A stretch of DNA of 46,852 bases from positions 1-46,852 of the forward strand of contig JBCNVN010000006.1 in the NCBI GenBank assembly GCA_039630055.1. Reading direction: 5' to 3'. The position numbers and the translations under genes are program-made. Shown here one piece after another: positions 2,828 through 30,237 of this stretch (the stretch's first letter is position 1; each line of letters begins with the position of its first letter). The notes beneath the pieces are model-generated. The model had not been told where the DNA came from and made no database searches. It saw only the letters and a list, made by a program, of their open reading frames with translations. This DNA comes from Candidatus Caldarchaeales archaeon (GTDB lineage Archaea; Thermoproteota; Nitrososphaeria_A; Caldarchaeales; Wolframiiraptoraceae).

Positions 2828-3613
2828 ATGGATATGCGAGTTTCTGTGAAAAGATTGTTTGACTTGGAGGGTAAAAAGGTGGTCATAACGGGTGCGGCAG
2901 GAGGTATAGGAAGCGCTATAGCTTTTGGGTTTGCTGAATTTAAAGCTGAATTAGCACTTATCGATAAAGAAGCTGAAGCTTTAAGAAAAATACATTCCAG
3001 GCTTAAAGAATATTCTAATAGTATTATTATCCAAGCCGATGTAACAAGTCTTAATGATGTAAATCAGGCTATAGAGAGAATCATTAATCATTATGGAAGG
3101 ATAGATATTTTAGTGAACAGTCATGGCATATTTCAATGGGTCTCAGCTGAAGAGATGAACGAAGAGGATTGGAATAGAATGCTTAACGTTAACTTAAAAG
3201 GAGTTTTTTTAATGTGTCAAGCAGTCGGCAGGCAGATGATTAAACAGAGATATGGAAAGATTATTAACATAGCTTCAATGTCGGGACTGATAGTTAATCG
3301 ACCTCAGCCCCAGTTGCATTACAATACGTCTAAGGCAGGAGTTATAATGCTCACTAAAAGCTTGGCTTCAGAATGGGCGAAATATAACATAAATGTTAAC
3401 TGCGTAAGTCCAGGTTATACGCTCACACAACAATTAGAAAATTTCATTAAAGAAAAACCGGAATATGCTGATCTTTGGAGAGGTCTCATCCCATTGAACC
3501 GTTTTGCGGAGGTTACAGACATAGTGGGAGCGGTAATATTTTTAGCTACAGATGCGGCGAGTTATATTACTGGACAGAACTTAATTATTGATGGCGGCTA
3601 TACTATATGGTAA
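2828..3613 (+). CDS. Short-chain dehydrogenase/reductase, polyol dehydrogenase/ketose reductase type (galactitol 2-dehydrogenase / L-xylulose reductase-like)
   Basis: TGAAGGIG, SMSGLIVNRPQPQ, catalytic YNTSK, VNCVSPGY and C-terminal DGGYTIW. Confidence 0.88.
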   Translation: MDMRVSVKRLFDLEGKKVVITGAAGGIGSAIAFGFAEFKAELALIDKEAEALRKIHSRLKEYSNSIIIQADVTSLNDVNQAIERIINHYGRIDILVNSHGIFQWVSAEEMNEEDWNRMLNVNLKGVFLMCQAVGRQMIKQRYGKIINIASMSGLIVNRPQPQLHYNTSKAGVIMLTKSLASEWAKYNINVNCVSPGYTLTQQLENFIKEKPEYADLWRGLIPLNRFAEVTDIVGAVIFLATDAASYITGQNLIIDGGYTIW

Positions 3614-3690
3614 ACACATATTGATACAAAAGAATGTCCGTAGAAAGTTAATAGACCTTTTCTATATCGAGAAGGATCTAGGGATTACTA

Positions 3691-4737
3691 TTAAGATGGA
3701 AGGTCTTTAGCTACTTGTATGAGTTTCTTTAGCCCCTCTTTCTTTTCAGTCTTTACTATTGCCTCAACAAGTTTCTCGAGAGGATAAATCTCTGATATTA
3801 TGGAGTCTAAATTAAGCCGGTTCTGCTGTATTAACGAATGTGCTTTAACGAAACTATCCCCCGAAAGTGCATAGGAGCCTACGACTCTGAGCTCTCTAAA
3901 GTATATATCAAATAGTGGAGTTGATGCTAACGCATTCTTTGGCGGCACCCCAAAAAGTAGCACTCTTCCACCCTTTCTAGCATATTTAAATAGGTCTTGA
4001 AATACATTCGCAGAACCTGTAGTATCGATAATTACGTCAGCGAATTTACCCCCTGTCACCTTCTTGATTGCTTCTAGAGGGTTGTAAGCTGATGGATTTA
4101 CCACCTCACTTGCACCTACTCGTCGTGCTATTTCAAGCCTTTCATCAATTAAATCTAATACTATTGTCTGAGAACTTCCACAGAGATTCGATAATTGGGT
4201 TAGTAAGAGTCCCATAGGTCCTGCTCCGACTACGATGACTACATCTCCGGGATCTATTCTTACGAGTTCTATTCCATGAATAGCACATGCAAGAGGCTCT
4301 GTAAACGCCGCATGCTTTAGTGAGGTTTTTTCATTATATTTTAGAACGTTTCTTTCCGGTATCTTTACGTACTGAGCATATGCACCATTTATAACGACTT
4401 CTCCAGCTCCTCCTAAAACCACACTGTTCTCGCATAGATTCGTTCTCCCACTTAGGCAATATCTACACCTGTTACAGTATATTATTGGATTTATGGCGAC
4501 GCGGTCACCTATGTTCACTTGAGTAACTTGGTCTCCAATTCCATCGACTATCCCTGAACATTCATGACCTAAAATGACAGGGAATTTCACTGGAAAAGAG
4601 CCGAAATATATATGTACATCTGTCATGCATACACCACAATAAGCGACTTTTACTACGACTTCATCATGATAAGGCTTAGGTTCTTCAACTTCTCTTAACT
4701 CGATCCTCTCTGGTCCGGTAAGAACCATAGCCCTCAA
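3691..4737 (-). CDS. Zinc-dependent medium-chain polyol/sugar dehydrogenase
   Basis: CGVCxTD, ILGHE, structural Zn motif CxxCxxC-x7-C, EPLAC and GAGPMG. TTG start lies directly after the upstream paralogue's stop. Confidence 0.9.
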   Translation of the reverse strand: MRAMVLTGPERIELREVEEPKPYHDEVVVKVAYCGVCMTDVHIYFGSFPVKFPVILGHECSGIVDGIGDQVTQVNIGDRVAINPIIYCNRCRYCLSGRTNLCENSVVLGGAGEVVINGAYAQYVKIPERNVLKYNEKTSLKHAAFTEPLACAIHGIELVRIDPGDVVIVVGAGPMGLLLTQLSNLCGSSQTIVLDLIDERLEIARRVGASEVVNPSAYNPLEAIKKVTGGKFADVIIDTTGSANVFQDLFKYARKGGRVLLFGVPPKNALASTPLFDIYFRELRVVGSYALSGDSFVKAHSLIQQNRLNLDSIISEIYPLEKLVEAIVKTEKKEGLKKLIQVAKDLPS

Positions 4738-4738
4738 C

Positions 4739-5785
4739 TTACTTCCCTCCTCTAATCTCTATCATGATCTTTCCGACCTCTTCCCCACCCTCTGCAGCAA
4801 GCCTCATACCTTTTATCACATCTGAGAAACTTAATCTATGAGTTATTAATCTAGTGATCTGTGGTCTCTTTCGGTATACTAGTCTAATTGCATCTTGAAA
4901 TACATTCGCGTATCTTAAAATACCGATGACATCAATCTCCTTAGTCGGTATGTTTATTATCTGAGCTTTCGTCAGCTCTTCGAATCCAAGTCCAATGACC
5001 ACTATTTTTCCACCTTTTCTAACTGATTTAAGGGCAAGGTTGAAGGTTTCCTCGATCCCTACAGCATCAAACACTATATCTGGACCACGTCCATCGGTCA
5101 GGTAATTTATAGTCTTTAAAGGATCCTCGCTCCTTACGTTGATGGTTGCTGTAGCTCCGAAATCCTTCGCCAACTTTAATTTACGGTCTATCACGTCCGT
5201 AATAAAAATATCTGAGGCTCCAGATTCACGCGCCGCTAAGAGGGTCATCAACCCTATAGTTCCTGCTCCAAGGATCATAACCTTATTACCTGGCATTAAT
5301 CCGCCTCGTCTAACGGAGTATAAGGCGACTGAAAAGGGCTCAATTAAAGCACCTTCTTCACTACTCGTTTCTTCAGGTATCTTATAGACAAAATCCGAAG
5401 GCCATGTAAGAAATTCTCTGAATGCACCATCATCAGGCGGCGTCCCCATGAATCTTAAATTGTCACAAATATTGTATTTGCCTGACTTGCAGTAAAAGCA
5501 CACTCTACATGGTGCCGCCGGCTCTATTACGACTCTATCACCTACCTCTAAATGTTTAACGGAGTCGCCTTTAGCGACGACGACGCCGGAGCACTCATGA
5601 CCCAGTACGATCGGCTTCTTTACTACAAAATCACCAATTCTTCCATGAACATAGTAATGAACGTCAGAATGACATATACCTACGTTCTTCATCTCGACAA
5701 TAACTTCATCTGGAGACTTTATCGTTGGATAATCTCTTTCCTCAAACCCCATGTTTCTAGGGCTGTAAAGTACTGCAGCCTTCAT
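4739..5785 (-). CDS. Sorbitol/xylitol (L-iditol 2-) dehydrogenase, MDR family
   Basis: VGICHSDVHYYxHGRIGDFVVKKPIVLGHE, CxxCxxC-x7-C, TPPDDG, EEGALIEP, GAGTIG, RYAN and LITHR are typical of the GutB/SORD family. Confidence 0.9.
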   Translation of the reverse strand: MKAAVLYSPRNMGFEERDYPTIKSPDEVIVEMKNVGICHSDVHYYVHGRIGDFVVKKPIVLGHECSGVVVAKGDSVKHLEVGDRVVIEPAAPCRVCFYCKSGKYNICDNLRFMGTPPDDGAFREFLTWPSDFVYKIPEETSSEEGALIEPFSVALYSVRRGGLMPGNKVMILGAGTIGLMTLLAARESGASDIFITDVIDRKLKLAKDFGATATINVRSEDPLKTINYLTDGRGPDIVFDAVGIEETFNLALKSVRKGGKIVVIGLGFEELTKAQIINIPTKEIDVIGILRYANVFQDAIRLVYRKRPQITRLITHRLSFSDVIKGMRLAAEGGEEVGKIMIEIRGGK

Positions 5786-5929
5786 AATCTGAAATCAAAT
5801 TTTTTCGCTAATAAATCTTCACTGCTAACTTATTCTAGAAATCACATAAGTTTCCCTTGCTCGGAAACCGTGATCAAAGTTTGGATTATTAAATCAACCT
5901 TATCCAATGATTCTCTACTAGACCATCTT

Positions 5930-6427
5930 CTACATTGTAAAACCTCTTCCCACATATGTGTATATTATATCTTGCTCAACATATGCCGCATCATATATCC
6001 CTGTTCCAGCCTCCATATCCACTATCTCCTTCGCATACATCATGCCCCAACTCACTACTTCCCATTCAACATTTATTCCAGTCTCTTCCTCAAATTTTGG
6101 TACAACAACTTCTTTAAGTGATACTGCAGGAGGCGTACTCTCCGTTACAACTCGGATCGTTGTCCCCCTATAAGGCCTAGCAACCTCCTTATAAGACCAA
6201 ACTTTTACAGGCGGTGGTGTAGGTGTCGGTGGGACGGTGAGCGTAATGGTTTATCTTACGGTAGTCGGCACAATCCTGGTCTCAGTTATCGTCACTGGTG
6301 GAGCTGCTGTCGCAGTTCCTGCAAAGTAGCCAGCCACACCAGCTACAACACCTGCGGCAACAGCACCGGCAGCGATTTTGGCAGTAACACTTATCGCCCC
6401 TCTTCTACTCATCTTTCTCGATAACAA
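5930..6427 (-). pseudogene. Disrupted CUT1 sugar/polyol ABC solute-binding protein with twin-arginine N-terminus
   Basis: Reads (L)LSRKMSRRGAISVTAKIAAGAVAAGVVAGVAGYFAGTATAAPPVTITET...VR*TITLTVPPTP...ARPYRGTTIRVVTES...FEEETGINVEWE...AGTGIYDAAYVEQD. In-frame TAA at 6251-6253 and premature TAG at 5930-5932. Confidence 0.85.
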
Positions 6428-6797
6428 TGGTTCTTCTCCCCTCTTTCTTCATGCACTCATTCATATTTTTCATAGTTTAATAATGTAAAAGAATGTAATA
6501 ATATAAAAGCCTAATATAAATTTTTAATTTTTTATTCAGTTGTTTTACATAAGTCCATGAAGCTGGGTCTTTGAGAAGGAAGTTTTCAGACAGACCTTAT
6601 AGAATATTGTGAATTCTTAGATCGTATTCGGAGCAATGAAAGAAGGCGTCGATTATATCTTTAGAATAAAAATAATCCGATATCATGGAGATTACGATAA
6701 TAGATTGATCTAGTTCGAAAATTTCCTATACTCACTCATCCAATTTATTTTTAGGAAATAGATCGTTGTCATCTCATATGAAATAGTGCTCACCGTT

Positions 6798-6839
6798 GTC
6801 TATACCTATTAAAATCATAATGTTAAGTATTGAAGTCAT
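6798..6839 (-). pseudogene. Second short RbsC-type permease remnant
   Basis: Encodes MTSILNIMILIGID, 11/13 identical to MTSILNIMVLAGI at 1975-1937. Confidence 0.5.
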
Positions 6840-7113
6840 CAGATTTTAATTGATTTTGACATAAGACTATTTTTGGACATAATTAAGGTTCTCATCTCCT
6901 ACAACCGTAAATTACGTGATATTAAGACTTATGTAACAATCGCCTGCTCAGGTGGTGAGATGACAATGGATCTATTGAGTTTTCGTAAATAACAGGAAAG
7001 ATTAGTCGCTCTTTCTCGAGTATTAGGATAAAGATCCTCCGAATCCATCTATCGATCTCAAATGTAGAGAAGGCTCTTCACATAATCTATTGGACTGATC
7101 TAGACAGTCTTGG

Positions 7114-7508: not shown

Positions 7509-7736
7509 GAATAGCTTACAAAACTTAAGATGAAGGATTTTAATGTATTAGAGTATCAAGGGTTTTCTAGACTATTTCATCAACAGACTTCGCTATATAC
7601 CTCTCAACTAGTTTAAAGTATTGAGAAAATTTATGAGAATAAGAATTCAACTGATACCTTAACAGAATGCTGTACAGTGCTTTTCCCCGTCGAGAGGCCT
7701 ATATATAACTTGATTAAGGTATTAACTCTGGCATCC

Positions 7737-9182
7737 ATGGGATCTAATAATGGCATGGAATACTATATAGCTGTCTTCGATATAGGGAAAACCAATAAGA
7801 AATTCCTACTATTTTCTGAAGACTTCAAATCTGTTTACGTTGATAGTGTTAAGATAGGTGAAGTATACAAGAACGGAATACTATGCGACGATATTGAGAG
7901 CATTGAAGCATGGGTTAAGGAGAAGCTAAAGGAAGTTTCTAGTAAGTATAAGGTGACAGGATTAGGTATGACAACACATGGAGCAACTCTCTCATATATA
8001 TCTGGAAAGAGGCTCGCTTTTCCAGTAATCTCATACAATCATGATATTGAACCTATGATTAGGAGGGAATTTTATAAAGAGTTCGGTTCACCATCTGAGC
8101 TTTACATGATTACCGGCACCCCTCCCTATGGACGTCTAATGACTGCTGGCATGCAGATCTATTGGTTCAGGAAAAAATATCCTGAAATATACTCTAAAGT
8201 CGATAGAATCCTCTTCTTTCCCCAGTACTTATTGTTCAGCGTATCTGGGATCGAGACCAGTGAGATTACGAGTATAGGTTGCCATACATATCTTTACGAT
8301 CTTAGAAGAATGGATTGGAGTATCGTAGCGGAAGAACTTAACGTTGATGATTTATCCCCTAGTATCATAGATGTGTGGAGAGGAGTAGGAAGTTTTAGGA
8401 CAGATAGTTTAGAGATAACTACTGTGCCGGGGATTCATGATTCTAATGCATCTATCCTGCCCTTCTTAAATAGGGAAGGTAAAGACATAGTGTTTGCATC
8501 GACTGGGACTTGGTGTGTCTTCATGTATCCTACTGCTGAGTTTAAACCCTCCCCAGAGGACCTCTATAAAGATGTAGTATACTATGTAAATGTCTATGGA
8601 AAGCCTGTAAGGTCTTCTAGATTTGCAGGTGGATACGAGCACGATCACTATCTAAAGATCATATCTGATAAATTCAATATAGATTATCGAGAGATCTCTC
8701 CGAATGTAGAGTTAGTTGATGAGATACTTAGAAGATGTGAAGATTTTATTACTCCTGGATTGATTGAAGGTGCTGGACAGTTTCAGAAGTCTAGGTCAAG
8801 GATAATTGGCAGCATGTTTACTAAGGATCCCGTCGCAGCATATCATATCTTGAACCTCAGCTTAGCGATACAATCATACGTAGCAGTAAATTTGATTGTA
8901 CATGAAATGAGTCCAGATATTCTTATAATAGGAGGATTTGCTAATAATGAGATCTATCTTAAACTCCTCTCTACACTGTTCCATGATAGTAGGGTTTTTA
9001 GATCTATTTTCCCAGAGGCGACCGCACTAGGTACTGCTATGTGTTGTAAATCTGCGATAGAAGGTGTAAGTCTAAGGGAGCTAAGTGTAAGACTACCTGT
9101 AGAGGAGGTTGGGAAGCTTGATATAGACTTGGATAGGCTGATGAATTATGTTGAAGAATATATTGAGTTTTCTTCGCGATGA
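7737..9182 (+). CDS. FGGY-family carbohydrate kinase (RhaK/rhamnulokinase-like clade)
   Basis: IAVFDIGKTNKK, TTHGA, EITSIGCHTYLYD, GIHDSNAS, STGTW and IGGFANN. Start is ATG 7737 or 7755; the ORF track extends it to 7677. Confidence 0.85.
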   Translation: MGSNNGMEYYIAVFDIGKTNKKFLLFSEDFKSVYVDSVKIGEVYKNGILCDDIESIEAWVKEKLKEVSSKYKVTGLGMTTHGATLSYISGKRLAFPVISYNHDIEPMIRREFYKEFGSPSELYMITGTPPYGRLMTAGMQIYWFRKKYPEIYSKVDRILFFPQYLLFSVSGIETSEITSIGCHTYLYDLRRMDWSIVAEELNVDDLSPSIIDVWRGVGSFRTDSLEITTVPGIHDSNASILPFLNREGKDIVFASTGTWCVFMYPTAEFKPSPEDLYKDVVYYVNVYGKPVRSSRFAGGYEHDHYLKIISDKFNIDYREISPNVELVDEILRRCEDFITPGLIEGAGQFQKSRSRIIGSMFTKDPVAAYHILNLSLAIQSYVAVNLIVHEMSPDILIIGGFANNEIYLKLLSTLFHDSRVFRSIFPEATALGTAMCCKSAIEGVSLRELSVRLPVEEVGKLDIDLDRLMNYVEEYIEFSSR

Positions 9183-9213: not shown

Positions 9214-11103
9214 TCATGCTCTCTTCAACAATTCTCTATATGATTCATACTTACTCTTCTCTATATATTTCATCAATCCTAATTTTTCTAGGATTTCCTT
9301 TTTAGGATAACCATCTTCACCCCATCCTCTATAACTATAATATTCTGGAAGCATTTTTTCTAGTTCTACTACTTGCCCAGCTGCACCACCTTCCCTTAAT
9401 GGCTCTCTTGTTAGTCTATCTGGTAGGCTGTCGTCTTTTTTACTCATTCCAGATGCCAAGTTGAATAACCTCTTTAATGTGAATATTCTTGTACCCTTTT
9501 CATGTAGCTCTTTCGCTGTCGTCTTCAACCCTGTTGCTAGAGAGTATATCGATGCGAGATGACCAGGAGTTGCCTGGAGAAACTTACATACGCCGAGGGA
9601 TTCTATTACTTCACTCCAATCCTGCATTATTGCGACTATTCTTGCTTTTCCATCGGTGTCGAATCTCTCAACCCTCTCATGTATATCGAGGTCCGTTACT
9701 CTTTCTCCCTGTTCTATCCTTAAGACGAATCCGTATAGATGGCATGCTCCTCTATTAGATGTAGCATACTGTAAACCCATCCCCTTGAATGCTCTTGGAT
9801 CATGCATAGGTATCTCGAGACCCTTTGAGTGCATGGCAAATGATTCAGAACCCTTAACCATCTTTGAAGCCATCCTTACACCATTAGACAATAATTCTCC
9901 TATGCCTTTCTTTTCAGAGATATGTCTTATTATTTCTTCTACAAATCTATGATCTCCCCATTGTGGCTCATATCCTTCAAGCATGCTTTTATCTATTAAA
10001 TTCTTCTCACATGCTTCGATAAACCATGCTATAGTTACACCTGTGGAGATTACATCTAAACCTAGCTTATTACATAGTTGATGTAGTTTCGCCACCTTAA
10101 TAGGGTTATCTATCATTAGTAATGATCCTAAGGCACCTATACTCTCGTATTCTACCGCTCTTCCTACTATTTTTTCTGAACCACCTTCACAATTAACATA
10201 CCTCCAGCAACTTATAGGACAGTTGAAACATGCTCTATGACCTTTAACTATCTTCTCAGCTATAGACTCTGCTTTTAAGTTTAATACGTTTTCCCATAAC
10301 CCTAATGAGAAGTTTTTGATTGGGAGGTCACCATAATAATACAGCGGCTCAACTTCTGACGGTGTTCCGTATGTCGAGTAGAGTTGAGTCGTCGGAAAAG
10401 ACATTATAGATGGAATTATCCTTTTTAGATAATCTCTAAATTTAACGATATCATCAACCTCGATTTTGCCCGAACCTTTAACAGCGATCGCCTTTAAGTT
10501 CTTTGAACCCATAACCGCTCCTAGACCACATCTGCCAGCAGACCTTGGACCATCCGGTCTCACATCAAAGTATATCCCAGCCATTCTTACAAGATTCTCC
10601 CCAGCTGGGCCTATCACCCCACATCTTACATAATTACCTAACTCTTCTCTCAACTTTATATCTACAGTATAGGTGTCTAGTCCCCAATATTTTTCAGCAT
10701 CTCTTACCTCGATAACTCCGTCCTGTATGTAGAGATATACGGGGCTAGAAGCTCTACCAGTTATTACTAAACCATCGTATCCAGCTTTCTTTAACTCTAC
10801 ACCCCAGAATCCGCCTGCATGTGCCTCACCCCAACCATTTGTTAGAGGAGACTTAGCGGCGACCGTAAATCTTGAGCTGGTTATCATTATCGTTCCGGTT
10901 AATGGCCCAGTCATAAAGACAAGAACATTTTCTGGAGAGAATGGATCTATTCTCGGATCTAATAAATCAAAGATTATCTTAGCTGCCAGTCCACTTCCTC
11001 CAATAAAGTCTAGAATGTCGTTCTCAGGTATCTCTAGGATCTTCACTTCCTCTCTAGTCAGATCTATGTAACATAATTTTCTACGATAGCATTTCATGGA
11101 CAT
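9214..11103 (-). CDS. aor: Tungsten-containing aldehyde:ferredoxin oxidoreductase family protein
   Basis: GGSGLAAK, GPLTG, AKSPLT, GPAGEN, GRCGLGAVMGSKNLKAI, [4Fe-4S] motif CxxCPIxC, EYE, DPR, RGACH and YYxxRGW. Confidence 0.93.
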   Translation of the reverse strand: MSMKCYRRKLCYIDLTREEVKILEIPENDILDFIGGSGLAAKIIFDLLDPRIDPFSPENVLVFMTGPLTGTIMITSSRFTVAAKSPLTNGWGEAHAGGFWGVELKKAGYDGLVITGRASSPVYLYIQDGVIEVRDAEKYWGLDTYTVDIKLREELGNYVRCGVIGPAGENLVRMAGIYFDVRPDGPRSAGRCGLGAVMGSKNLKAIAVKGSGKIEVDDIVKFRDYLKRIIPSIMSFPTTQLYSTYGTPSEVEPLYYYGDLPIKNFSLGLWENVLNLKAESIAEKIVKGHRACFNCPISCWRYVNCEGGSEKIVGRAVEYESIGALGSLLMIDNPIKVAKLHQLCNKLGLDVISTGVTIAWFIEACEKNLIDKSMLEGYEPQWGDHRFVEEIIRHISEKKGIGELLSNGVRMASKMVKGSESFAMHSKGLEIPMHDPRAFKGMGLQYATSNRGACHLYGFVLRIEQGERVTDLDIHERVERFDTDGKARIVAIMQDWSEVIESLGVCKFLQATPGHLASIYSLATGLKTTAKELHEKGTRIFTLKRLFNLASGMSKKDDSLPDRLTREPLREGGAAGQVVELEKMLPEYYSYRGWGEDGYPKKEILEKLGLMKYIEKSKYESYRELLKRA

Positions 11104-11107
11104 AATG

Positions 11108-11764
11108 CTATATCCTCCAATACTTCTTGGCTACCTCAATCTCTTCCGGAGGTACTTCTGGTGGTTCAACACCGAGAGTATAACATACAAATTCTATTGT
11201 AGCTATTGATTCAAGTAGCTCGACAATGGCCTCGGCTTCTAATAGATTTGTGCCGAGACCTAGAACACCATGATTCTTCAAGATAATTGCTCTAGCTCCT
11301 CTAGATGCTACTGAGGCGACTGATTCGGCTAAATATGTCGTACCGGGAAACTTGAAATCTACTTCTTCTATGCGTCTCAACAAGATTACGGCTTCATCGG
11401 TTATTGTCGTCTTCAACTTCCTGCCAGCGAGGGTCAGTCCCAGAACCATAGGATTATGTGCATGAACTATCGCATTTACATCGGGCCTGATCTTGTATAC
11501 TGCAGCATGCATAGGCCACTCTATAGAAGGTTTTAAAAGACCGTCAACTATCTCTCCATCGAGATTAAGCTTTACTAGATCTTCAGTTCTTAGAGCACCT
11601 TTAAATACTTGGCTGGGGGTTATCCAGAACTCGCTTCCAGCAGGGATCCTTGCACTTATGTTTCCACCGAGAGCTGTGATTAAGCCTCTATCATAGAGAG
11701 CTCTCGAGACTCTAATAATCTCGTTTTTAATCTCTTCTTCTGGAAATAACTCGAAACTTTCCAT
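11108..11764 (-). CDS. fucA: Class II aldolase/adducin family, probable L-fuculose-1-phosphate aldolase
   Basis: GGNISAR, ITPS, PSIEWPMH, RPDVNAIVHAH and LKNHG (Zn-binding His triad). Substrate is inferred from neighbouring fucI/fucK. Confidence 0.8.
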   Translation of the reverse strand: MESFELFPEEEIKNEIIRVSRALYDRGLITALGGNISARIPAGSEFWITPSQVFKGALRTEDLVKLNLDGEIVDGLLKPSIEWPMHAAVYKIRPDVNAIVHAHNPMVLGLTLAGRKLKTTITDEAVILLRRIEEVDFKFPGTTYLAESVASVASRGARAIILKNHGVLGLGTNLLEAEAIVELLESIATIEFVCYTLGVEPPEVPPEEIEVAKKYWRI

Positions 11765-11787
11765 CTATGGAAAATAGATTTAGATCC

Positions 11788-11795
11788 TATTTAAA
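11788..11795 (-). promoter_or_regulatory. Archaeal TATA box for the aldolase-AOR transcript
   Basis: TTTAAATA on the minus strand about 24 nt upstream of ATG 11764 (leaderless spacing). Confidence 0.55.
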
Positions 11796-11854: not shown

Positions 11855-12673
11855 CTAACCCTTTACATAACCCATCGTTAAACCTCTAACCAAATATTTT
11901 TGGAAGATTGCTACAATAGCGATCGGTGGAATGCTTGCAAGAAATGCTATAGCACATACAACACCGTAGAGTATATCATGACCTCCATAAAATCGGGGGA
12001 TAAGGGTTGGAAGAGGCTTCACGGCAGATCTTGTTAAGAAAAGTTGGATCAAGAACTCATTCCAGCTAAACATGAATAACATGACTGATGTTGCGATCAA
12101 TCCTGGTAGACTTATAGGTAGCACGACCCTGAAGAATGCGTTTCTAAGACTGCATCCATCGATAAGAGCGCTTTCTTCAAAATCTTTAGGAATGCCGTCA
12201 AAGAAGCTCTTCATAATCCATGTGGCAAATGGTATGTTAAAAGTTAGATGGGCGATTATTACAGATATATGGGTATCTAACAACTTTAAGACGTTGAACA
12301 TGATGAAAAATGCTAGAGCAAATGTTATTGCAGGAGCAAATCTTTGAGATAGTATAAAGAAAGCTAGATTCCGTCCACCTCTATACCTTGACAATCCAAA
12401 ACCAGCCATACTACCTATCACTAAACTTATTAACATGTTTAGACCGGCGATCAAGAAACTGTCCATTAAACCTTGAAGACCACCCATCAAGAATAATCCC
12501 TTATAGAAGTTTTCGAGAGTCGGTCGGTCGGGTATTAGTTTGGGCGGGAATGATGCCCAATCTGGTTCAGGTTTAAACGCCATCGTCACCATCCAGTATA
12601 ATGGAAACGCGAAGAATATTATACTAAGCGTAACTATTATAAATCTTATGGTGTTAAACTTTAACAGACCCAT
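11855..12673 (-). CDS. Carbohydrate ABC transporter permease (CUT1, MalG-like)
   Basis: Six hydrophobic segments, EESALIDGCS EAA loop, SWNEF and QKYLVRGLTMGYVKG. Confidence 0.93.
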   Translation of the reverse strand: MGLLKFNTIRFIIVTLSIIFFAFPLYWMVTMAFKPEPDWASFPPKLIPDRPTLENFYKGLFLMGGLQGLMDSFLIAGLNMLISLVIGSMAGFGLSRYRGGRNLAFFILSQRFAPAITFALAFFIMFNVLKLLDTHISVIIAHLTFNIPFATWIMKSFFDGIPKDFEESALIDGCSLRNAFFRVVLPISLPGLIATSVMLFMFSWNEFLIQLFLTRSAVKPLPTLIPRFYGGHDILYGVVCAIAFLASIPPIAIVAIFQKYLVRGLTMGYVKG

Positions 12674-12684
12674 CCTTCCACCTC

Positions 12685-13578
12685 TCAGAATTTTATCCCG
12701 TATCCTCTAACAAATACGGTTAAGATTATTGTTATTATTACTATCATTAGTATTGTTAATGTAGCGGCATAGGCTACGTTTAAGAACTGGAGAGCTTGAT
12801 TGAATATATACAGTGATGCAACCTCTGAAGCGAATCCTGGACCACCCTTAGTCATAACATAGGGTATCCCAAAGGCTTTAAAAACATCCATCAATCTTAT
12901 TATTAATGCAACACCTATAATAGGTTTGATAAGAGGTATCATCATATGTCTCATTATTTTGGCTCTACTTGCACCATCAATCTCTGCACTCTCTAAAATT
13001 TCTTTTGGAATCGATGCAAAACCTGCAAGTATGACGAGGAAGAAAAACGGTGTCCACTGCCATACATCTGCAAGTACTATCATCTCCATCGGATAGGTTG
13101 TTACCAAGCTTATCGGTTTTTTAAAACCAAGCAGATCCCATAGGCCGAATGTTCTCATTAGTAAGTCTAACGGTCCATAGGTGGGCACCAGTACCAATCC
13201 CCAGACCAGTCCTACAACCGCCTCGCTAAGAGCAAGTGGAAATAAGATTACCGCGCTGAGCAATCTTCTCATTCTAAAAGGCTCGAAAAACATCATTGCG
13301 AGTATCAGACCAATAAAAAATTCTAAAGGTACAGCGACTGATAATAAGTAAAAAGTCTTACTTAGAGAATTGATAAACCTAGCATCCTGAAAGGCTTTCA
13401 AATAGTTACTTATTCCTATAAATTCAGGGACTGCCCCTCTGAATCTTAGATCCCATCTCATAAAACTTACATATAGATTAAAGACGAATGGGAAAGCCAC
13501 TATAATTATTAATAATACTAAAGCGGGAAGTATAAAAAAATAGAGAGAGGTTTGTTTCTTCATCAGCCTCTTCCCCAA
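12685..13578 (-). CDS. Carbohydrate ABC transporter permease (CUT1, MalF-like)
   Basis: FIGISNY, DVWQWTPF, ESAEIDGAS and MTKGGPG. Confidence 0.93.
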   Translation of the reverse strand: MGKRLMKKQTSLYFFILPALVLLIIIVAFPFVFNLYVSFMRWDLRFRGAVPEFIGISNYLKAFQDARFINSLSKTFYLLSVAVPLEFFIGLILAMMFFEPFRMRRLLSAVILFPLALSEAVVGLVWGLVLVPTYGPLDLLMRTFGLWDLLGFKKPISLVTTYPMEMIVLADVWQWTPFFFLVILAGFASIPKEILESAEIDGASRAKIMRHMMIPLIKPIIGVALIIRLMDVFKAFGIPYVMTKGGPGFASEVASLYIFNQALQFLNVAYAATLTILMIVIITIILTVFVRGYGIKF

Positions 13579-13580
13579 CT

Positions 13581-15206
13581 CTATCTAGGCCATATTCCAG
13601 CACGTTTATACTCTACGATCTGCTGTTTCCAAAGGTTCTTCTGCTTATCTTCACCGAGATCTTTTGTTATAGACCTCCACTCTTCTACAGTCCTCGATAT
13701 AGCCTCTCTAGCAGATATCTCCTTTTTAACAGCCATCATAATATACCTACTCAATACATCAGTGTATTGGGCTGCACCTGGAAGGTAGAGGTCTGGATAT
13801 CCACGTGCAAAGTTTTCAGCAGATGCTCTAATATAATCTAGGATTCCCTCTTCACTCCATGCAGGATTAGCCTTTTTCCAATGTGGTAAGGCACCTGGAC
13901 TTGTATGACTGTATGCGAATGGGTCTTCTCCATTAAGACCGCTTGGAACCCAGAACACAGATGTATCATACATCCACTTTAGAACTCTAAAAGCTGCTTC
14001 TCTCTTATCTTCTGGAGTATTCACAGTTATTATCATAACTCTTCCTACACCGGTCCAACTATATCTAATCAGTTTTCCTCCAACAACATATCCTGGAACT
14101 AGTGCTGTCCCAACTTGGTCACCTTTGACTGGGAATTCGCCACTACCGGCTCTAGGTCCGACATCCGGCCATGTTAACGTCATGGCCGTAATTCCTTTCG
14201 TCATGCAGTCGAATACTTCTAGAGCTCCGAATTCAAGAACTCCGGGCGGCATGTAATCTACGATCTTCACTAAGTCTTCAAGACCCTTTACAGCCGCATC
14301 ATTGGGTACAAGTGGATTCATTTCTTCATCAAACCATAGGCCACCGAGAGATGCAAATCTATCAAAGAATATTCCCCAGGTTAGGTCTTTAAAATCTTCT
14401 ACTGTTCCATATTCTATCTCTCCATCTTTATCCCAATCCCATCCGTTAAAGAATTCAGCGGTCTGTAGATATTCTTCATATGTTTTCGGTGGTTCTAGAT
14501 CTCTTCCGAATCTATCTCTGAAACGTCTCCTAATCTCAGGATCAGCAAATATATCTTTCCTATAGTATAATGCATGGAAATCTCCATCGTATGGTAACGC
14601 ATATACTTTTCCAGCCCAACTACAGTACAAGTATCTATATACGGGGGGCAGATCATCTAGATTAACCCTGTACTTTTCTATATATGCATCCAGAGGTACC
14701 GCCCATCCACCGCCCAGAATATCTCCATTATATGTTGGAAAGTATACGATGATATTGTACTTTCCTGGTCCAGTTAGATCTGCCATATAGATGGAAAACT
14801 CTGTCCCAGGATCAACCTCTTCTCCAGAGATGTCTATACCAAGAGCTTCTGAAATTTTTGGAGCTTGGTTTTGCCCATAATGTCCACCCATCGGAGCCTC
14901 AACTGGATCAAACCATGGAAGATAATTGTGACCTGCATCGCATGCTAGAGATAGTTTAACTCTTTCAGCGGGCATCCCAACAGTTTTAGTAACGGTTTGG
15001 GTAACCGCGGTTGTAACCGTCGTCGGCACCGTAATCGTAGCAGCCGCCGCGGTAACTGTTCTCGTCTCTGTAACTGTTGTCGGCGCTGCAGTGGCGCTAC
15101 CGGCAAGATATCCTCCAACACCAGCTATTATACCTGCAGCAACAACACCTGCTGCAACTTTACCAGCAGTAGAGATAGCTTCTCTTCTAGAGATTTTATT
15201 TTTCAT
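13581..15206 (-). CDS. Sugar ABC transporter solute-binding protein with twin-arginine signal and Thr-rich linker
   Basis: ISRREAIS plus hydrophobic helix plus T/V-rich stretch; GKVYALPYDGD, YYRKDIF and PPKTYEEY. Start ATG 15206 preferred over 15245. Confidence 0.9.
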   Translation of the reverse strand: MKNKISRREAISTAGKVAAGVVAAGIIAGVGGYLAGSATAAPTTVTETRTVTAAAATITVPTTVTTAVTQTVTKTVGMPAERVKLSLACDAGHNYLPWFDPVEAPMGGHYGQNQAPKISEALGIDISGEEVDPGTEFSIYMADLTGPGKYNIIVYFPTYNGDILGGGWAVPLDAYIEKYRVNLDDLPPVYRYLYCSWAGKVYALPYDGDFHALYYRKDIFADPEIRRRFRDRFGRDLEPPKTYEEYLQTAEFFNGWDWDKDGEIEYGTVEDFKDLTWGIFFDRFASLGGLWFDEEMNPLVPNDAAVKGLEDLVKIVDYMPPGVLEFGALEVFDCMTKGITAMTLTWPDVGPRAGSGEFPVKGDQVGTALVPGYVVGGKLIRYSWTGVGRVMIITVNTPEDKREAAFRVLKWMYDTSVFWVPSGLNGEDPFAYSHTSPGALPHWKKANPAWSEEGILDYIRASAENFARGYPDLYLPGAAQYTDVLSRYIMMAVKKEISAREAISRTVEEWRSITKDLGEDKQKNLWKQQIVEYKRAGIWPR

Positions 15207-15373
15207 GACGAAATTTACTTCAAAGTTCCATATAAGATTTTTCATATATTCCTTCTATAAGGATATAGATGAGTAAATGTGTTAATGGTGTATGTGCAAA
15301 TAATTTTGCCAAACCTACAAACAGTTGAAAATATCTAAAAAAATTTAATAAACACTAGACAATACTATATGCC

Positions 15374-16867
15374 ATGAAACTATATCCGATCGGTATAGCT
15401 ATGTTGGGTGATGAAAGAGAGTTTTTACACTCTGAGCTATTACCTAAATGTGAAGAGAATCTGAGCAAGGTTGTCAACATATTAAATAAGAAGTTGTCAG
15501 AATCGTATAGATATAATAAACCTGAAATAGTTGTAGGTTCGAAGATCATAACATCAATAAAAACTTCTAAAGAAGTTGGAGAAGAGCTTTCCAAATCAGG
15601 CGCCAAGATCGTGATACTAGTTTACTACATTTGGAATTATCCTTATCTCGTTTGGCCCCTCATAAATGCTATAGGAAAAGATAAGCCGATCTTAAATCTT
15701 TCAAATAATGATGGACAGTATCCAGGAAATGTTGGTCTACTAGCTACAGATGGAGCTTTAAGACAGTCAGGCTTGACAACAAGTAGAATCATAGGCGATA
15801 TAGAAGATCCAAAGATACAGAAAAAAGTAATAGATTGGATCATGGCCGCTGAAGCCTATGTTTCGATGAGAGGACAGGTCTACGGTATGTATGGTGGGCA
15901 CTCAATGGGTATGGAGACAGGATACTTTCACATGATTCCAATCCAAAGAGTCTTCGGAATAACTACCTATCAGATAGATCAATTATGGCTGGTAGAAAGA
16001 TTGAAAGAGGTTCCAGAAGAAGAAGTAGAGAAAGGATTTAGGTGGCTCAACAATATGTTGAAGGATCGGATTAAATATGATGGAAAAATGCTTACACCGG
16101 AAACGTTGAAAAAACAGTTAAGTCTGTACCTTGCGATGAATAAAACGAATGAAGAATACGGTTTTGATTTCTGTGGAATAAAAGGACAAAGGGAGATGTC
16201 AGAATATGTTTGTATAACAGATGTTGCAGAGATGCTACTAAATGATCCGTATGATTGGAATGGACCGAAAGAGCCGTTCGTATGTTCTACCGAGGCTGAC
16301 TCACTAGCTGCTATAACTATGCAGATTCTCAAATATGTTAGTGGCGGAATGCCCGTTCTCTTCGCTGACGTCAGATTATATCATCCTGATATGGACATAT
16401 GGGATTTCTGTAATTCGGGAAATCACTCTAGCTGGTATGCATCAAGAAGCTACAATCCTGAAGATAACTTTAAGAAGGTAACTCTTCATCCAGCATTGGA
16501 ACTGTATTTTAGAGCTGGTGGAGCATCGGTCGAGTTTGACGCAGCCCCAGGTGAGATGACGTTTGCTAGAACCGGTATATGGCAAGATAAAATCTACATG
16601 GTCATAGTGAAGGGGCAATCTCTAGACTTACCAGAAGAAGAGAGAAGAAGATTGAGTCGGATGACGAACCCGACCTGGCCACATGTCTTCGTTAAGCTAG
16701 ACAGCAAATTCGAAGACTTCGTGTCTGTATTCCCCTCAAACCACATATTGGGCGTCGCCGGAGACCATGTAGAGAAACTTCTCAATTACTGTCATATAGC
16801 GGGCATAAAGCCCATTCTACTATCGAGAGAAGGTAAGACTGGACAAATCTGGGAAATGCTCGAGTAG
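15374..16867 (+). CDS. fucI: L-fucose/D-arabinose isomerase
   Basis: GGHSMGM, GIKGQRE, TEADS (Mn ligand Glu), FADVR (Asp), NSG, TxxTWPH and NHIxxVxGD (His). Confidence 0.85.
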   Translation: MKLYPIGIAMLGDEREFLHSELLPKCEENLSKVVNILNKKLSESYRYNKPEIVVGSKIITSIKTSKEVGEELSKSGAKIVILVYYIWNYPYLVWPLINAIGKDKPILNLSNNDGQYPGNVGLLATDGALRQSGLTTSRIIGDIEDPKIQKKVIDWIMAAEAYVSMRGQVYGMYGGHSMGMETGYFHMIPIQRVFGITTYQIDQLWLVERLKEVPEEEVEKGFRWLNNMLKDRIKYDGKMLTPETLKKQLSLYLAMNKTNEEYGFDFCGIKGQREMSEYVCITDVAEMLLNDPYDWNGPKEPFVCSTEADSLAAITMQILKYVSGGMPVLFADVRLYHPDMDIWDFCNSGNHSSWYASRSYNPEDNFKKVTLHPALELYFRAGGASVEFDAAPGEMTFARTGIWQDKIYMVIVKGQSLDLPEEERRRLSRMTNPTWPHVFVKLDSKFEDFVSVFPSNHILGVAGDHVEKLLNYCHIAGIKPILLSREGKTGQIWEMLE

Positions 16868-17023: not shown

Positions 17024-18520
17024 ATGAAGGAAGATGTTGTTATTGTATATGATTGTGGCTCAACTAATCTACGCGTAGCCGCCTTCAAATCATCTGGAGA
17101 TATTGTTGCTCAGAGGACGACTTCAAATTCTAGCAAGATCCAGTATCCTGAGAAACCTGAATGGCGGATATGGGATTTAGACGAGATATGGTTTAAACTC
17201 TGTCAACTTACAAGGGACGTCTTGAAAGAACTCTACGAAGACTACAGAGTTGTCGGAGTTATAGTCGTAACATGGGGGGCTGATGGTGTCTTCGTCGATA
17301 GAGAAGGTAAACCAACATATCCTGCAATCTCATGGCAATGTTCGAGAACCATTGAATCTATGAACGAGGTGAGAGGATTGATAGATCCTTGGGAGGTATT
17401 CAAGATCACTGGATACCAGTTTATATCTTTCAATACTTTCTTTAAATGGTTTTGGATTAAGAGGAATGTCCCTGAAGCTATCGAGAAGGCTAAGACCTTT
17501 CTAATGATCCCTCACTATATAACTTACAAGCTTACAGGAGAGTTCTTTGTCGAGCCCACGGATGCATCTACAACTATGGCCATGGATCTAGCAAAGAGAG
17601 ATTGGTCAACTGAAATGCTATGCTTGGTCAGTCTAGACCATTCATTCTTCCCAGAGTGGAAAGAGCCAGGTGAGATAGCAGGTTACGTTACCGAAAAAGC
17701 TTGTAATGAGACTGGATTGAAAAAGGGTCTCCCAGTAGTAGTTGGGGGTCATGATACACAGTTTGCGATATTTGCAGCAGGAAGAGAGAAGAATGAAGCT
17801 ATTCTATCGAGTGGTACATGGGAGATATTATCTTTTAGATGTCCAGATTACATTATAAGTAGAGATGCTTTCGAGAATGGGGTCGTGATAGAACTTGATG
17901 TTGAGAAGGGCTTCTGGAATCCACAATTCTTGATGATCGCCTCAGCTGTACTAGAGTGGTTGGGGAGACTGGTTTATCCAGAAGCTGAGAGAAGATACGA
18001 TCTAATGGAGGAAGAAGCATCACAGATACCCTCAGGCTCCGACAATCTGATATTATTACCCAGCCTCTTCCCAGGATCTGGTCCAACATACAAGTATAAT
18101 ATTCCAGGAGTGGTTCTTGGATTAAGATTACATACTACGAGGGCCCATTTATATAGAGCAGCACTGGAGGGACTTTCTTATCAGCTTAGGTTAGCTATAG
18201 AATTGTTAGAGAAAGCATTTAGAATAGAATTTCCAAGAATCACGATCGTTGGAGGCGGGTCTAAGAATGAGCTCTGGAATACTATCCGTGCAAATGTAAT
18301 CAATAGGGAGGTAGTTGTCAATAGATTCTTCGAAACGACAGCTCTAGGAGCGGCAATAGTTGCATTTAAGGGAGTAGGATATTTTAGAACTTTTAATGAA
18401 GCTATAAAGAATATCGATTATCGGTGGAGAATAATAAAACCAACAAACTATACTGATAGCTATAATAGATTATACAAGACATATCTTAAAGTTTATGAGA
18501 AACTATCTGAAATAATTTGA
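17024..18520 (+). CDS. fucK: L-fuculokinase
   Basis: N-terminus MKEDVVIVYDCGSTNLR, WRIWDLDEIW, TWGADG, YPAISWQCSRT, SFNT, GHDTQFA, LSSGTWEIL and GGGSKN closely follow enterobacterial FucK. Lies downstream of fucI. Confidence 0.88.
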   Translation: MKEDVVIVYDCGSTNLRVAAFKSSGDIVAQRTTSNSSKIQYPEKPEWRIWDLDEIWFKLCQLTRDVLKELYEDYRVVGVIVVTWGADGVFVDREGKPTYPAISWQCSRTIESMNEVRGLIDPWEVFKITGYQFISFNTFFKWFWIKRNVPEAIEKAKTFLMIPHYITYKLTGEFFVEPTDASTTMAMDLAKRDWSTEMLCLVSLDHSFFPEWKEPGEIAGYVTEKACNETGLKKGLPVVVGGHDTQFAIFAAGREKNEAILSSGTWEILSFRCPDYIISRDAFENGVVIELDVEKGFWNPQFLMIASAVLEWLGRLVYPEAERRYDLMEEEASQIPSGSDNLILLPSLFPGSGPTYKYNIPGVVLGLRLHTTRAHLYRAALEGLSYQLRLAIELLEKAFRIEFPRITIVGGGSKNELWNTIRANVINREVVVNRFFETTALGAAIVAFKGVGYFRTFNEAIKNIDYRWRIIKPTNYTDSYNRLYKTYLKVYEKLSEII

Positions 18521-20679: not shown

Positions 20680-21657
20680 GTGATAAACAGTGTAGCTGGT
20701 CTCGGAAAATTAGATGTCGTAACCGTTGGAGAGTGCTTGGTGGAGATTATGCGAGAATCTCGAGATGTTCCACATGATGTTCCTGGAGTTTACCTTGGAC
20801 CTTATCCTAGTGGAGCTCCCGCGATATTCATAGATGCCTGTGCAAGACTAGGGCTAAAAACAGGAATAATCGGTGCTGTGGGAGATGATGCCTTTGGCAA
20901 ACTCTTGATAGATAGGCTTAAGAGAGACAGTGTTGATGTAAGTAGAGTTAAGATTTTAAAAGATTTCACCACTGGGGTTGCATTCGTAACTTACTTCTCG
21001 TCAGGCTTGAGACAGTTTATCTATCATCTAAGACATGCAGCTTCAGGTCAAATATTTCCAGTGGACATCGATCCAAGTTACATCAAGGCATCAAAGCTTC
21101 TACATTTGATGGGTTCAAGTTTATCGATAAATGAAAATTGTAAAGAAGCCTGTTATAGAGCTGTAGAGATAGCGGATGATGAAGGGCTGATGATAACCTT
21201 TGACCCCAACCTTCGTCCAGAGCTTCTAGATGTTTCAACGATAAGAAATATCTGTGCTCCTATCTTAAAAGTTGCAAAAGCAGTTCTTCCAAGCAGTATT
21301 GAAGCAGAGGCTCTAACGGGTGTTAAGGATCCTATAAACTCGGGAAGGAGGCTTCTTGAATATGGGCCTGAGATTGTCGTAATAAAGATGGGTGAGAAGG
21401 GATCGATAGCAGTAACTAGAGATGAAGTTATTGAGACATCTGCGATAAAGGTGAAAGAGGTAGATCCTACAGGGGCTGGAGATGTATATGATGCAGCCTT
21501 CATATATGGACTGCTTAATAGATGGTCTCTTAAAGAGATTCTAAGATTTGCCAATGCAGCGGGCGCAATCAAGGTAACTAGATTCGGCCCTATGGAGGGA
21601 CCTGTATCTCGTCATGAGATTGAAAACTTTTTGAGAGAAATGAGCGCTGATCTATAA
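20680..21657 (+). CDS. PfkB-family sugar kinase, probable D-tagatose kinase
   Basis: GPYPSGAPAIFID, GAVGDDAFG, FDPNLR and DPTGAGD. Lies 2 bp upstream of a KbaZ/GatZ-family gene. Confidence 0.85.
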   Translation: MINSVAGLGKLDVVTVGECLVEIMRESRDVPHDVPGVYLGPYPSGAPAIFIDACARLGLKTGIIGAVGDDAFGKLLIDRLKRDSVDVSRVKILKDFTTGVAFVTYFSSGLRQFIYHLRHAASGQIFPVDIDPSYIKASKLLHLMGSSLSINENCKEACYRAVEIADDEGLMITFDPNLRPELLDVSTIRNICAPILKVAKAVLPSSIEAEALTGVKDPINSGRRLLEYGPEIVVIKMGEKGSIAVTRDEVIETSAIKVKEVDPTGAGDVYDAAFIYGLLNRWSLKEILRFANAAGAIKVTRFGPMEGPVSRHEIENFLREMSADL

Positions 21658-21659
21658 GT

Positions 21660-26008: not shown

Positions 26009-26040
26009 ATAATCTAATAGAAGAAGTTTCATAACCGATT

Positions 26041-26066
26041 TTTTAATAATAAAAATAAAAGAAAGA
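26041..26066 (-). terminator. Probable T-rich archaeal terminator between convergent genes
   Basis: Minus strand reads TCTTTCTTTTATTTTTATTATT just after the solute-binding protein stop. Confidence 0.4.
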
Positions 26067-26074
26067 TGAAGTTT

Positions 26075-27574: not shown

Positions 27575-27674
27575 ACAAAAATAATATGTTTTTATTATAT
27601 TTAAATTTTAGGTTAATATTTTTAAAAAGGCGACTCGTCATATAAATTTGAGAGTGCAGTAGTGTGATACGTCT

Positions 27675-28568: not shown

Positions 28569-28572
28569 GAGT

Positions 28573-29421: not shown

Positions 29422-30237
29422 TCTCCTATAACAGGTTAAGTCTCTAAAAACGATTTACATAAATTTCTAAAGTGTGGTAGCTGATTTAAAAGTTATAAGG
29501 AACCTTAATACTAATCGCGGGTCTTCTATTATATACCGTTTTCAATTAATAGATACCATAGAATATATCGGCGAAGAGTGACTAATCTATGGTTATGGAG
29601 AGATTGTTACTTCATTATTTCCTGAGATGGAAGTACTAGTGATGGCATCATCAATTATTTTATTTCCAGATACTTCACAACTATAAATATCTCTTTACTA
29701 GAGGTAAAGCTTGTTTATATGATATGAGAAGATATCTTTCTTTAGAGTCATGAAGAGTATAGACATAAATGAATGTTTTAACAACATTCCTCTCCTTTTC
29801 GATATCTTTTTCGTAAAGACATGTATAGATTTTCCACCAAAAAGTTTTTGACTCCTAGATATGACTTCCCGTGAAAATCATCCACTACGAGATCATCTTC
29901 TAAAATTTCTCTTCTCGAGTCTGCTCAGAGTTATAATTACATAGTTTGTGCTCGGATTCATTTACTGACGACTTAAAAGATACTCTAATAGAACCTTTAT
30001 CAAAGAGAGTTTAAAACATGTAAGACATCTTACTAGGTAACTTTATCGACCGATCCTCTTTCAGTATTAATATATTTTATATTCCGAAATTAAACTATGT
30101 TACATGATCTAGATTTTAAAATACCGTTTATGTACCAATCAACCTACTCTCCTATACGTAATATTTAGGAGTCTAAAATAAATTTATGTTATTATGATGG
30201 TTAAAATATGAGTCAAATCTATAGAAGAGAATGAATA

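Follow-up and report, generated by a model that had tools for sequence, protein, structure and literature searches.

The aldolase–AOR gene pair and its products

The window analyzed here is a 46,852 nt stretch of DNA from a Candidatus Caldarchaeales archaeon (contig JBCNVN010000006.1 of GenBank assembly GCA_039630055.1). It is contig C56 of a source genome of 1.54 Mb that is 92% complete and consists of 80 contigs. The window has a G+C content of ~39% and encodes the archaeal ribosomal proteins L24/L26e, S4e and L5. On its minus strand, a gene for a class II (FucA-like) ketose-1-phosphate aldolase of 218 amino acids (11108–11764; PF00596, 151.8 bits) is directly followed by a gene for a 629 amino acid protein of the tungstopterin aldehyde:ferredoxin oxidoreductase (AOR) family (9214–11103; PF02730, 259.7 bits; PF01314, 426.6 bits). 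Comparative genomics, on which the functional statements below rest, supports a distinct AOR subfamily that is defined by this partner gene and has a predicted dedicated substrate.

The TAG stop codon of the aldolase gene (11110–11108) is separated from the ATG start codon of the AOR gene (11103–11101) by the 4 nt CATT (11107–11104), the spacing given in an earlier note made from the sequence alone. A GGAGG motif within the aldolase 3′ end (11114–11118), 10 nt 5′ of the AOR ATG, resembles a Shine–Dalgarno sequence and may function as one. On the other side, a 90 nt gap lies between the aldolase gene and a permease gene. Inside this gap, the octamer TTTAAATA (11788–11795, minus strand) is found 24–31 nt 5′ of the aldolase ATG, where the earlier note had placed a TATA box. 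The motif itself is present; its number in the window (9 found, 4.63 expected) is not significant and was rejected as statistical evidence, as 6 of 100 shuffles also reached 9. Its position is suggestive because a second copy (27598–27605, minus strand) precedes the binding-protein gene of a second transporter (ATG at 27574) at the same 24–31 nt spacing. TTTAAATA is a possible archaeal TATA promoter for a leaderless aldolase–AOR transcript.

The genes around the pair bear out its placement inside a fucose cluster. The minus-strand run starts with the solute-binding protein gene of an ATP-binding cassette (ABC) transporter (13581–15245; PF01547, 49.2 bits), followed by genes for a GlcT-like permease (12685–13578; PF00528; NF040931, 106.8 bits, under the cut-off) and a GlcU-like permease (11855–12673; PF00528; NF040932, 132.6 bits, under the cut-off). 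In divergent orientation, on the plus strand, lie the genes for an aldose-ketose isomerase resembling FucI and D-arabinose isomerase (15374–16867; 497 amino acids, short form; PF07881, PF07882 and PF02952) and for a FucK-like ketose 1-kinase (17024–18520; TIGR02628, 412.1 bits, cut-off 470.9). The FucI-like protein is 25% identical to E. coli FucI, and the FucK-like kinase shares 39% identity with E. coli FucK over its full length, across 473 amino acids (338 bits). A phosphorylative-fucose gene set (FucI-like, FucK-like and aldolase) is thus encoded together, with all three members under the equivalog cut-offs. The stretch is present in two DNA runs of one hot-spring metagenome study.

Among the 40 window open reading frames (ORFs) of at least 80 amino acids, Pfam detected no iron-containing alcohol dehydrogenase (Fe-ADH) of the FucO type, no aldehyde dehydrogenase (Aldedh) of the AldA type and no microcompartment domain. 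The corresponding claim of the earlier note therefore stands for the window. It does not extend to the genome, which contains five Aldedh and two Fe-ADH matches elsewhere, along with two further class II aldolases.

In phmmer comparisons with PDB entries, the AOR scored 428 bits on 9mqx_D, 401 on 1aor and 397 on 9g7j, versus 304 on FOR, 236 on WOR5 and 185 on BamB; the GAPOR model gave 40 bits. These scores place it nearer to AOR proper than to any of FOR, WOR5, GAPOR and BamB. The cluster ligands Cys288, Cys291, Cys295 and Cys494 of 1aor (CxxCxxxC plus a distal Cys) are kept, and the cluster cysteines C292, C295, C299 and C506 in the numbering of the query are invariant in 13 clade members. 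Glu313 (EYES) and His448 (CH) of 1aor, which we take to be the catalytic residues, are kept as well, and the query residues E320 and H455 are invariant across the clade. Compared with 1aor, the DxxGL(C/D) pterin motifs carry Asn in place of Asp338 (NKLGLD, also in 9mqx_D) and Glu in place of Asp489 (ESLGVC). The protein is an AOR-family member with intact catalytic residues, for which tungsten binding and ferredoxin-linked activity are predicted.

Like P. furiosus AOR (1aor), 9mqx_D and 9g7j_A, the window AOR has a two-domain architecture and no adjacent gene for a polyferredoxin subunit. Unlike AOR proper, it belongs to a separate clade, shares at most 40% identity with the other sampled paralogs and has an aldolase gene as its fixed partner. 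For P. furiosus AOR, the usual association is with peptide-derived aldehydes. The closest named relatives are the AORs of Candidatus Wolframiiraptor gerlachensis and W. allenii (72–73% identity). The genome encodes seven AORs, the linked one and six paralogs.

The aldolase keeps the Zn-binding histidines His92, His94 and His155 of E. coli FucA together with Glu73, and these four columns are invariant in the alignment. For these residues, as for Tyr113, we assume the functional roles ascribed to them in E. coli FucA. A complex prediction for AOR and aldolase scored 0.12 against a mark of 0.32, which carries no weight for or against binding.

Conservation of the pair and phylogeny of the linked AORs

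Genome records queried with the AOR yielded nine loci, seven of which were informative in having an AOR identity of at least 55% and upstream DNA. In all seven, a class II aldolase gene lies directly upstream of the AOR gene on the same strand. Named lineages among them are Wolframiiraptor, an uncultured Thermoprotei archaeon and Bathyarchaeota B26-2. We also queried 401 Thermoproteota genomes with the aldolase and examined the 30 best loci. At aldolase identities of at least 52%, AOR comes directly after the aldolase in all 21 loci, our own included. These loci span eight Thermoproteota families (f1, f18, f19, f25, f41, f47, f48 and f55), although related genomes among them are non-independent samples. 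The linkage is therefore not unique to this genome, a point on which the earlier note had made its proposal depend. In the nine loci with 44–51% aldolase identity, AOR follows in none within the 1.5 kb flank. The ORF-to-ORF gaps in linked pairs are mostly 0–21 nt; negative values are an artefact of choosing the longest possible ORF.

When metagenomes were scanned with the clade alignment, 80 loci were recovered. The aldolase gene is directly upstream of the AOR gene in 36 of them, four have the order aldolase, seryl-tRNA synthetase, AOR, and 22 have upstream DNA without an aldolase; in a further 17 the upstream DNA is short, and one is broken. Taken together, these counts place the adjacency of aldolase and AOR far beyond chance.

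The AOR trees were calculated without named characterized enzymes, for which the PDB bit scores above served as a substitute. The first tree comprised 47 sequences, namely the distinct AORs of six genomes and of the named loci (quick IQ-TREE, LG+G4). The 15 aldolase-linked AORs, 50–100% identical to the window AOR, form one clade (SH-aLRT 100), and the 32 unlinked paralogs, 24–40% identical to it, fall outside. In a combined tree of 108 AORs, all 45 aldolase-adjacent AORs lie within a clade of 56 (SH-aLRT 99), which also holds the four split cases, five unlinked AORs (L121, L136, L141, L145 and L152) and two of unknown state. Outside this clade, none of the 48 AORs with upstream DNA is linked to an aldolase. 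The linked AORs thus form a clade of their own.

Several observations concern the pair in individual lineages. In one subclade (L149, L153, L154 and L155; ~3000–6850 each), it is a seryl-tRNA synthetase gene that sits between aldolase and AOR, and a HAD hydrolase gene converges downstream; in L145 and L152, which are related, the AOR and HAD genes are present and the aldolase is missing. Within the genus of the window, the pair occurs unevenly: a search at E ≤ 1e-30 found no aldolase in five other species, and the FucI-like gene is present in one of seven. In G207 (C48:1972–3292; L188, L191), a FucI-like ortholog with 70–77% identity is in two pieces with an internal TAA and may be a pseudogene, although the kinase, aldolase and AOR genes are retained. 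Class II aldolase homologs with 40–43% identity were found within frames of 642–643 amino acids (G224:C51:1315–1896 and G136:C1:96242–96832) and may represent fusion proteins. AORs of other clades (≤45% identity; L158, L162, L172, L182, L183 and L184) adjoin Fe-ADH genes whose products are 29–36% identical to E. coli FucO; this is a different AOR–partner association.

Gene neighborhoods across lineages

The pair is the constant part of these loci. Its surroundings vary, yet in a consistent direction, toward deoxyhexulose kinases and lactate enzymes. The kinase near the pair is FucK-like both in the window and in loci of the Wolframiiraptor type. In the L063 operon, which faces a gene for an MFS sugar transporter, aldolase and AOR are followed by a rhamnulokinase-like kinase (TIGR02627, 478.7 bits, cut-off 528) and a TIM barrel protein resembling xylose isomerase and RhaI. 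The same operon recurs in L114 and L115; in L111 and L113, the same rhamnulokinase-like kinase is encoded nearby. Triose-phosphate isomerase is encoded near the pair in L021 and L063.

Lactate enzymes recur in several arrangements. In L067 and L131, AOR is followed by LutA-like and LutB/LdhH-like genes (415 bits on the LdhH model and 346 on LutB, both under cut-off). L118 (272–6854) encodes on one strand EtfA, a FAD-linked oxidase, the lactate racemase LarA, a small ORF, aldolase and AOR. In L113 (2856–10154), larA lies upstream of the pair, and genes for a FAD oxidase, EtfA and EtfB converge on it. FAD oxidase and EtfAB genes also flank FucK, aldolase and AOR in W. gerlachensis (L017:2194–9765), L061 and L106, and LarB- and LarC-like genes are present in L065.

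The FAD oxidases match best 7qh2_C, the LctD subunit of the NAD+- and ferredoxin-dependent lactate dehydrogenase, with 306 and 324 bits, ~100 bits above the next entry; on the glycolate oxidase 9qgz they reach 190 and 201 bits. The large Etf subunit scores 257–286 bits on 7koe_B, 7qh2_A (LctC, 285.5), 6fah_A (CarE) and 5ol2_A, which we take to be bifurcating Etfs, 235 bits on 4kpu_A, and 149 bits on 1efv_A, presumably a non-bifurcating one. On these scores, an LctD-type FAD enzyme and a bifurcating-type EtfAB are encoded together in L017, L061, L106, L113 and L118. The window genome itself encodes a D-lactate-dehydrogenase-like FAD enzyme with an Fe-S partner (contig C11), a LutB-like protein (C23) and three Etf pairs.

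The window carries further sugar genes. A gene for an FGGY-like kinase (7677–9182, plus strand; FGGY_C_2, 79 bits; best NCBIfam match 33.5 bits) is divergent in sequence and runs toward the 3′ end of the AOR gene; the two stop codons are 31 nt apart. At 641–1507 and 20680–22985, a D-psicose-3-epimerase-like protein (240 bits, cut-off 300), a tagatose-kinase-like PfkB protein (283 bits, cut-off 420) and a GatZ/KbaZ-like protein are encoded, which suggests a rare-hexose (psicose/tagatose) route in the same island. The region 24605–33331 contains the gene for a FucI-superfamily protein resembling sulfoquinovose isomerase (SftI, 168 bits, cut-off 700) that adjoins the second ABC transporter, a full-length bacterial-type transketolase gene (843 bits) and an FSA/transaldolase gene. 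Elsewhere in the window genome, at G000:C27:181–8245 (L103), a second cluster of this kind encodes an FGGY (XylB-like) kinase, an AraD-like class II aldolase or epimerase (180 bits) and an NAD-type aldehyde dehydrogenase next to an IS6-family transposase gene.

Predicted role in deoxysugar breakdown

We consider it probable that the pair acts in deoxysugar breakdown and that the AOR subfamily is an L-lactaldehyde:ferredoxin oxidoreductase, the archaeal counterpart of the fucA–fucO arrangement in E. coli. L-Lactaldehyde, which is oxidized to lactate, is the single aldehyde that the routes for fucose and rhamnose have in common, and this is why we read the subfamily as acting on lactaldehyde. 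In the proposed pathway, the ABC transporter would import a 6-deoxyhexose, most likely L-fucose in this genome. The FucI-like enzyme would convert it to the ketose, which the FucK-like FGGY kinase would phosphorylate at C1. The class II aldolase would then cleave the ketose-1-phosphate to dihydroxyacetone phosphate (DHAP) and L-lactaldehyde; for L-fuculose-1-phosphate, the FucK-like and FucI-like context is consistent with such a cleavage. Finally, AOR would oxidize L-lactaldehyde to L-lactate and pass two electrons to ferredoxin. Aldolase and AOR would be co-transcribed as one catabolic unit, and AOR would replace the bacterial FucO and AldA, making this branch of sugar metabolism dependent on a tungstopterin enzyme. 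The earlier note had proposed a dedicated AOR that oxidizes the hydroxyaldehyde released by the aldolase; linkage, clade and the recurring lactate and kinase neighbors lend support to this prediction.

The comparison with the E. coli fuc regulon (FucP, FucI, FucK, FucA, FucO, and AldA aerobically) is close in layout. There, fucA and fucO are adjacent on one strand, and here too the gene predicted to dispose of L-lactaldehyde comes right after an aldolase gene in the same orientation, while isomerase and C1 kinase are encoded divergently nearby. Unlike in E. coli, the position of fucO is held by the predicted ferredoxin-linked tungstopterin AOR. FucO is an NADH-dependent Fe-ADH that reduces lactaldehyde to propanediol, and AldA is an NAD-dependent aldehyde dehydrogenase. 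Uptake also differs, being assigned to an ABC system and not to FucP, and with E. coli FucU as query no match was found.

A number of points weigh against this reading. The aldolase shares only 28% identity with E. coli FucA and stays under every NCBIfam FucA cut-off (TIGR01086, 63.6 bits versus 400.25; NF040649, 127.4 versus 250; NF005302, 98 versus 264), its best match being FucA_Meth (NF040649), the methanogen-type FucA. The column of Tyr113 holds Thr in all 11 aligned clade members, in a part of the alignment that is gapped. Because of its low identity, the Thr in this column and the missed cut-offs, we call the aldolase FucA-like and not a demonstrated FucA; another aldolase of this genome, on contig C30 (32%), fits E. 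coli FucA better. All kinase assignments are under the curated cut-offs as well. A single aldolase clade would also need to accept both fuculose-1-phosphate and rhamnulose-1-phosphate, which differ in their C4 configuration. In L020/L064, L066, L069 and L070, the pair occurs without any sugar gene or informative neighbor. In the window genome, the lactate-oxidizing genes are not adjacent to the pair, and LarA was not found in this 92% complete assembly. No RNA sequencing runs carrying the locus are listed. Finally, the best PDB match of the FucI-like protein is the D-arabinose isomerase 3a9r (96.7 bits), ahead of E. coli FucI 1fui (82.6 bits).

This last point leads to a rival in which the architecture is the same and the main aldehyde is glycolaldehyde. 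If the isomerase acts like its best solved relative, a pentose such as D-arabinose would be converted via D-ribulose-1-phosphate to DHAP and glycolaldehyde, and AOR would make glycolate. E. coli FucI, FucK and FucA also handle D-arabinose. Some FAD enzymes of the GlcD/LctD type are glycolate dehydrogenases (TIGR00387 glcD, 311 bits, under cut-off), pentose genes are abundant in the window (XylB, 568 bits, over the cut-off; transketolase; transaldolase), and W. gerlachensis is described as assimilating xylose preferentially (PMC9246946). However, LarA (L113, L118), the LutB/LdhH-like proteins (L067, L131) and the rhamnulokinase-like kinases (L063, L111, L113–L115) fit lactate and lactaldehyde, and the FAD enzymes score higher on LctD (306/324 bits) than on glycolate oxidase 9qgz (190/201 bits). 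Lactaldehyde is favored over glycolaldehyde by this context. We regard glycolaldehyde as unlikely to be the main aldehyde; it is a possible second substrate.

Alternatively, AOR could be a broad scavenger in general aldehyde detoxification that has no dedicated link to the aldolase product, or the "aldolase" could be a class II-fold protein with epimerase or decarboxylase activity. Characterized AORs are of broad specificity, the genome has six other AOR paralogs, and the aldolase scores alike on the epimerase NF005123 (100 bits) and the decarboxylase OxoTetrPhDc (104 bits); the tungsten enzyme WOR1 of Eubacterium limosum takes five aldehydes comparably well according to the text of PMC11725836. 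Yet a generic scavenger would not remain tied to one aldolase clade, whereas this AOR is fixed to one across eight families, with 45 adjacent cases inside the AOR clade and 0 of 48 outside. The FucA set of one Glu and three His is moreover conserved in the aldolase. We therefore judge detoxification to be improbable.

Quite improbable, in our assessment, is a salvage of the DHAP-shunt type, in which the aldolase would act on 5-deoxyribulose-1-phosphate or methylthioribulose-1-phosphate, which derive from by-products of S-adenosylmethionine (SAM) use, and AOR on acetaldehyde or methylthioacetaldehyde, the sugar genes being coincidental. The pair does occur without sugar genes in several lineages and lies in L069 near genes for an anaerobic ribonucleotide reductase and its radical-SAM activase, and the aldolase weakly matches MtnB and aldolase models. 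On the other hand, no MtnA-type (IF-2B) isomerase or nucleoside phosphorylase was found among the annotated neighbors of the pair, and the MtnA-family genes of the genome are on other contigs (C9 and C1), while genes for kinases, isomerases, sugar transporters and lactate enzymes repeatedly adjoin the pair in arrangements that are independent of each other.

A biosynthetic role, with the pair making L-lactate for coenzyme F420 (2-phospholactate), was rejected and is extremely improbable. In Methanocaldococcus jannaschii, FucA and a lactaldehyde dehydrogenase supply L-lactate for F420; among NCBIfam models, the aldolase fits the methanogen-type FucA (NF040649) best, genes for CofE-like ligases lie ~5–6 kb from the pair in L067 and L068, and the window genome has CofE. 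But within the family, the distributions of CofE and aldolase are opposed: in genus g3, a close aldolase occurs in 6 of 9 genomes and CofE in 0 of 10, and in genus g1, CofE occurs in 7 of 7 other genomes and the aldolase in 0 of 5. The pair is also located in transporter, kinase and isomerase operons. As a separate observation in family f1, the F420 gamma-glutamyl ligase domain PF01996 is present in all 20 sampled genomes of g1, g2, g4 and g5 (G000 not counted) and in none of the 10 of g3.

Returning to lactaldehyde oxidation by a dedicated AOR, the nearest known case of an AOR oxidizing an aldolase product is the class I 2-keto-3-deoxy(phospho)gluconate (KD(P)G) aldolase route. In both, a non-phosphorylated hydroxyaldehyde is released by an aldolase and oxidized to the acid by an AOR with ferredoxin, as predicted here. 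The pair differs in having a class II FucA-like aldolase and in the predicted aldehyde, lactaldehyde instead of glyceraldehyde. We know of no fixed aldolase–AOR gene pair for the KD(P)G aldolase pathway.

Oxidation of lactaldehyde by a tungsten enzyme has a precedent in vitro. In the published account of E. limosum WOR1, which belongs to the same tungsten enzyme superfamily as the window AOR, lactaldehyde is among its best substrates, and its oxidation is interpreted by the authors as detoxification during growth on lactate (PMC11725836). Unlike the window AOR, WOR1 is described there as multisubunit and bifurcating, and it has no aldolase partner or deoxysugar role in that account (PMC11725836). 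For Wolframiiraptor, growth is reported to be tungsten-dependent, and the published model names AOR-like 1–3 and puts AOR only after pyruvate (PMC9246946). The words aldolase, fucose, fuculose, lactaldehyde, glycolaldehyde and lactate do not occur in the article text, and fuculose, fuculokinase, "class II aldolase", lactaldehyde and rhamnul have no occurrence in 12 of the 13 supplementary files (PMC9246946). In the open-access literature (PMC and bioRxiv, with subscription journals outside this scope), we found no AOR described as the lactaldehyde enzyme of a deoxysugar pathway and no description of an aldolase–AOR pair.

The lineages with LarA, LctD and EtfAB permit a more tentative proposal, which we put forward as a possibility somewhat short of even: AOR may be the ferredoxin donor of a closed electron loop from lactaldehyde to pyruvate. 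The oxidation of lactaldehyde to L-lactate would give two reduced-ferredoxin equivalents, the lactate would be racemized by LarA, and Ldh-EtfAB would use the low-potential electrons to convert lactate to pyruvate with NAD+, a step that is otherwise uphill. Overall, lactaldehyde + 2 NAD+ → pyruvate + 2 NADH would result, and ferredoxin would cycle inside the module. By the stoichiometry known from Acetobacterium woodii, a confurcating lactate dehydrogenase needs reduced ferredoxin. The gene content resembles Ldh-EtfAB (LctBCD, 7qh2) and lactate racemase of A. woodii, with LctD-like and EtfAB genes in L017, L061, L106, L113 and L118 and LarA in L113 and L118. Unlike in A. woodii, where reduced ferredoxin comes from other reactions, it would be supplied by AOR in the related loci; in the window genome, the module genes are not beside the pair. 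A closed ferredoxin loop, if true, would account for the AOR subfamily staying fixed to the aldolase, and it would be a naturally occurring case, linked at the gene level, of a tungsten enzyme coupled to flavin-based electron confurcation.

To our knowledge, most AOR-family paralogs lack a known physiological substrate, and anaerobic thermophiles carry many of them. Here, a whole AOR subfamily is defined by a fixed partner gene, with L-lactaldehyde as the predicted substrate and phosphorylative fucose and rhamnose breakdown as the predicted pathway. The archaeal deoxysugar routes known to us are non-phosphorylative, and we know of no description of phosphorylative fucose or rhamnose breakdown in archaea. 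Its repeated association with LctD-Etf and lactate racemase suggests that the pair belongs to a compact module, neutral in ferredoxin, that would lead from lactaldehyde to pyruvate and join a tungsten enzyme to confurcation. For sugar-grown Wolframiiraptor, the pair may offer a molecular reason for part of its tungsten dependence.

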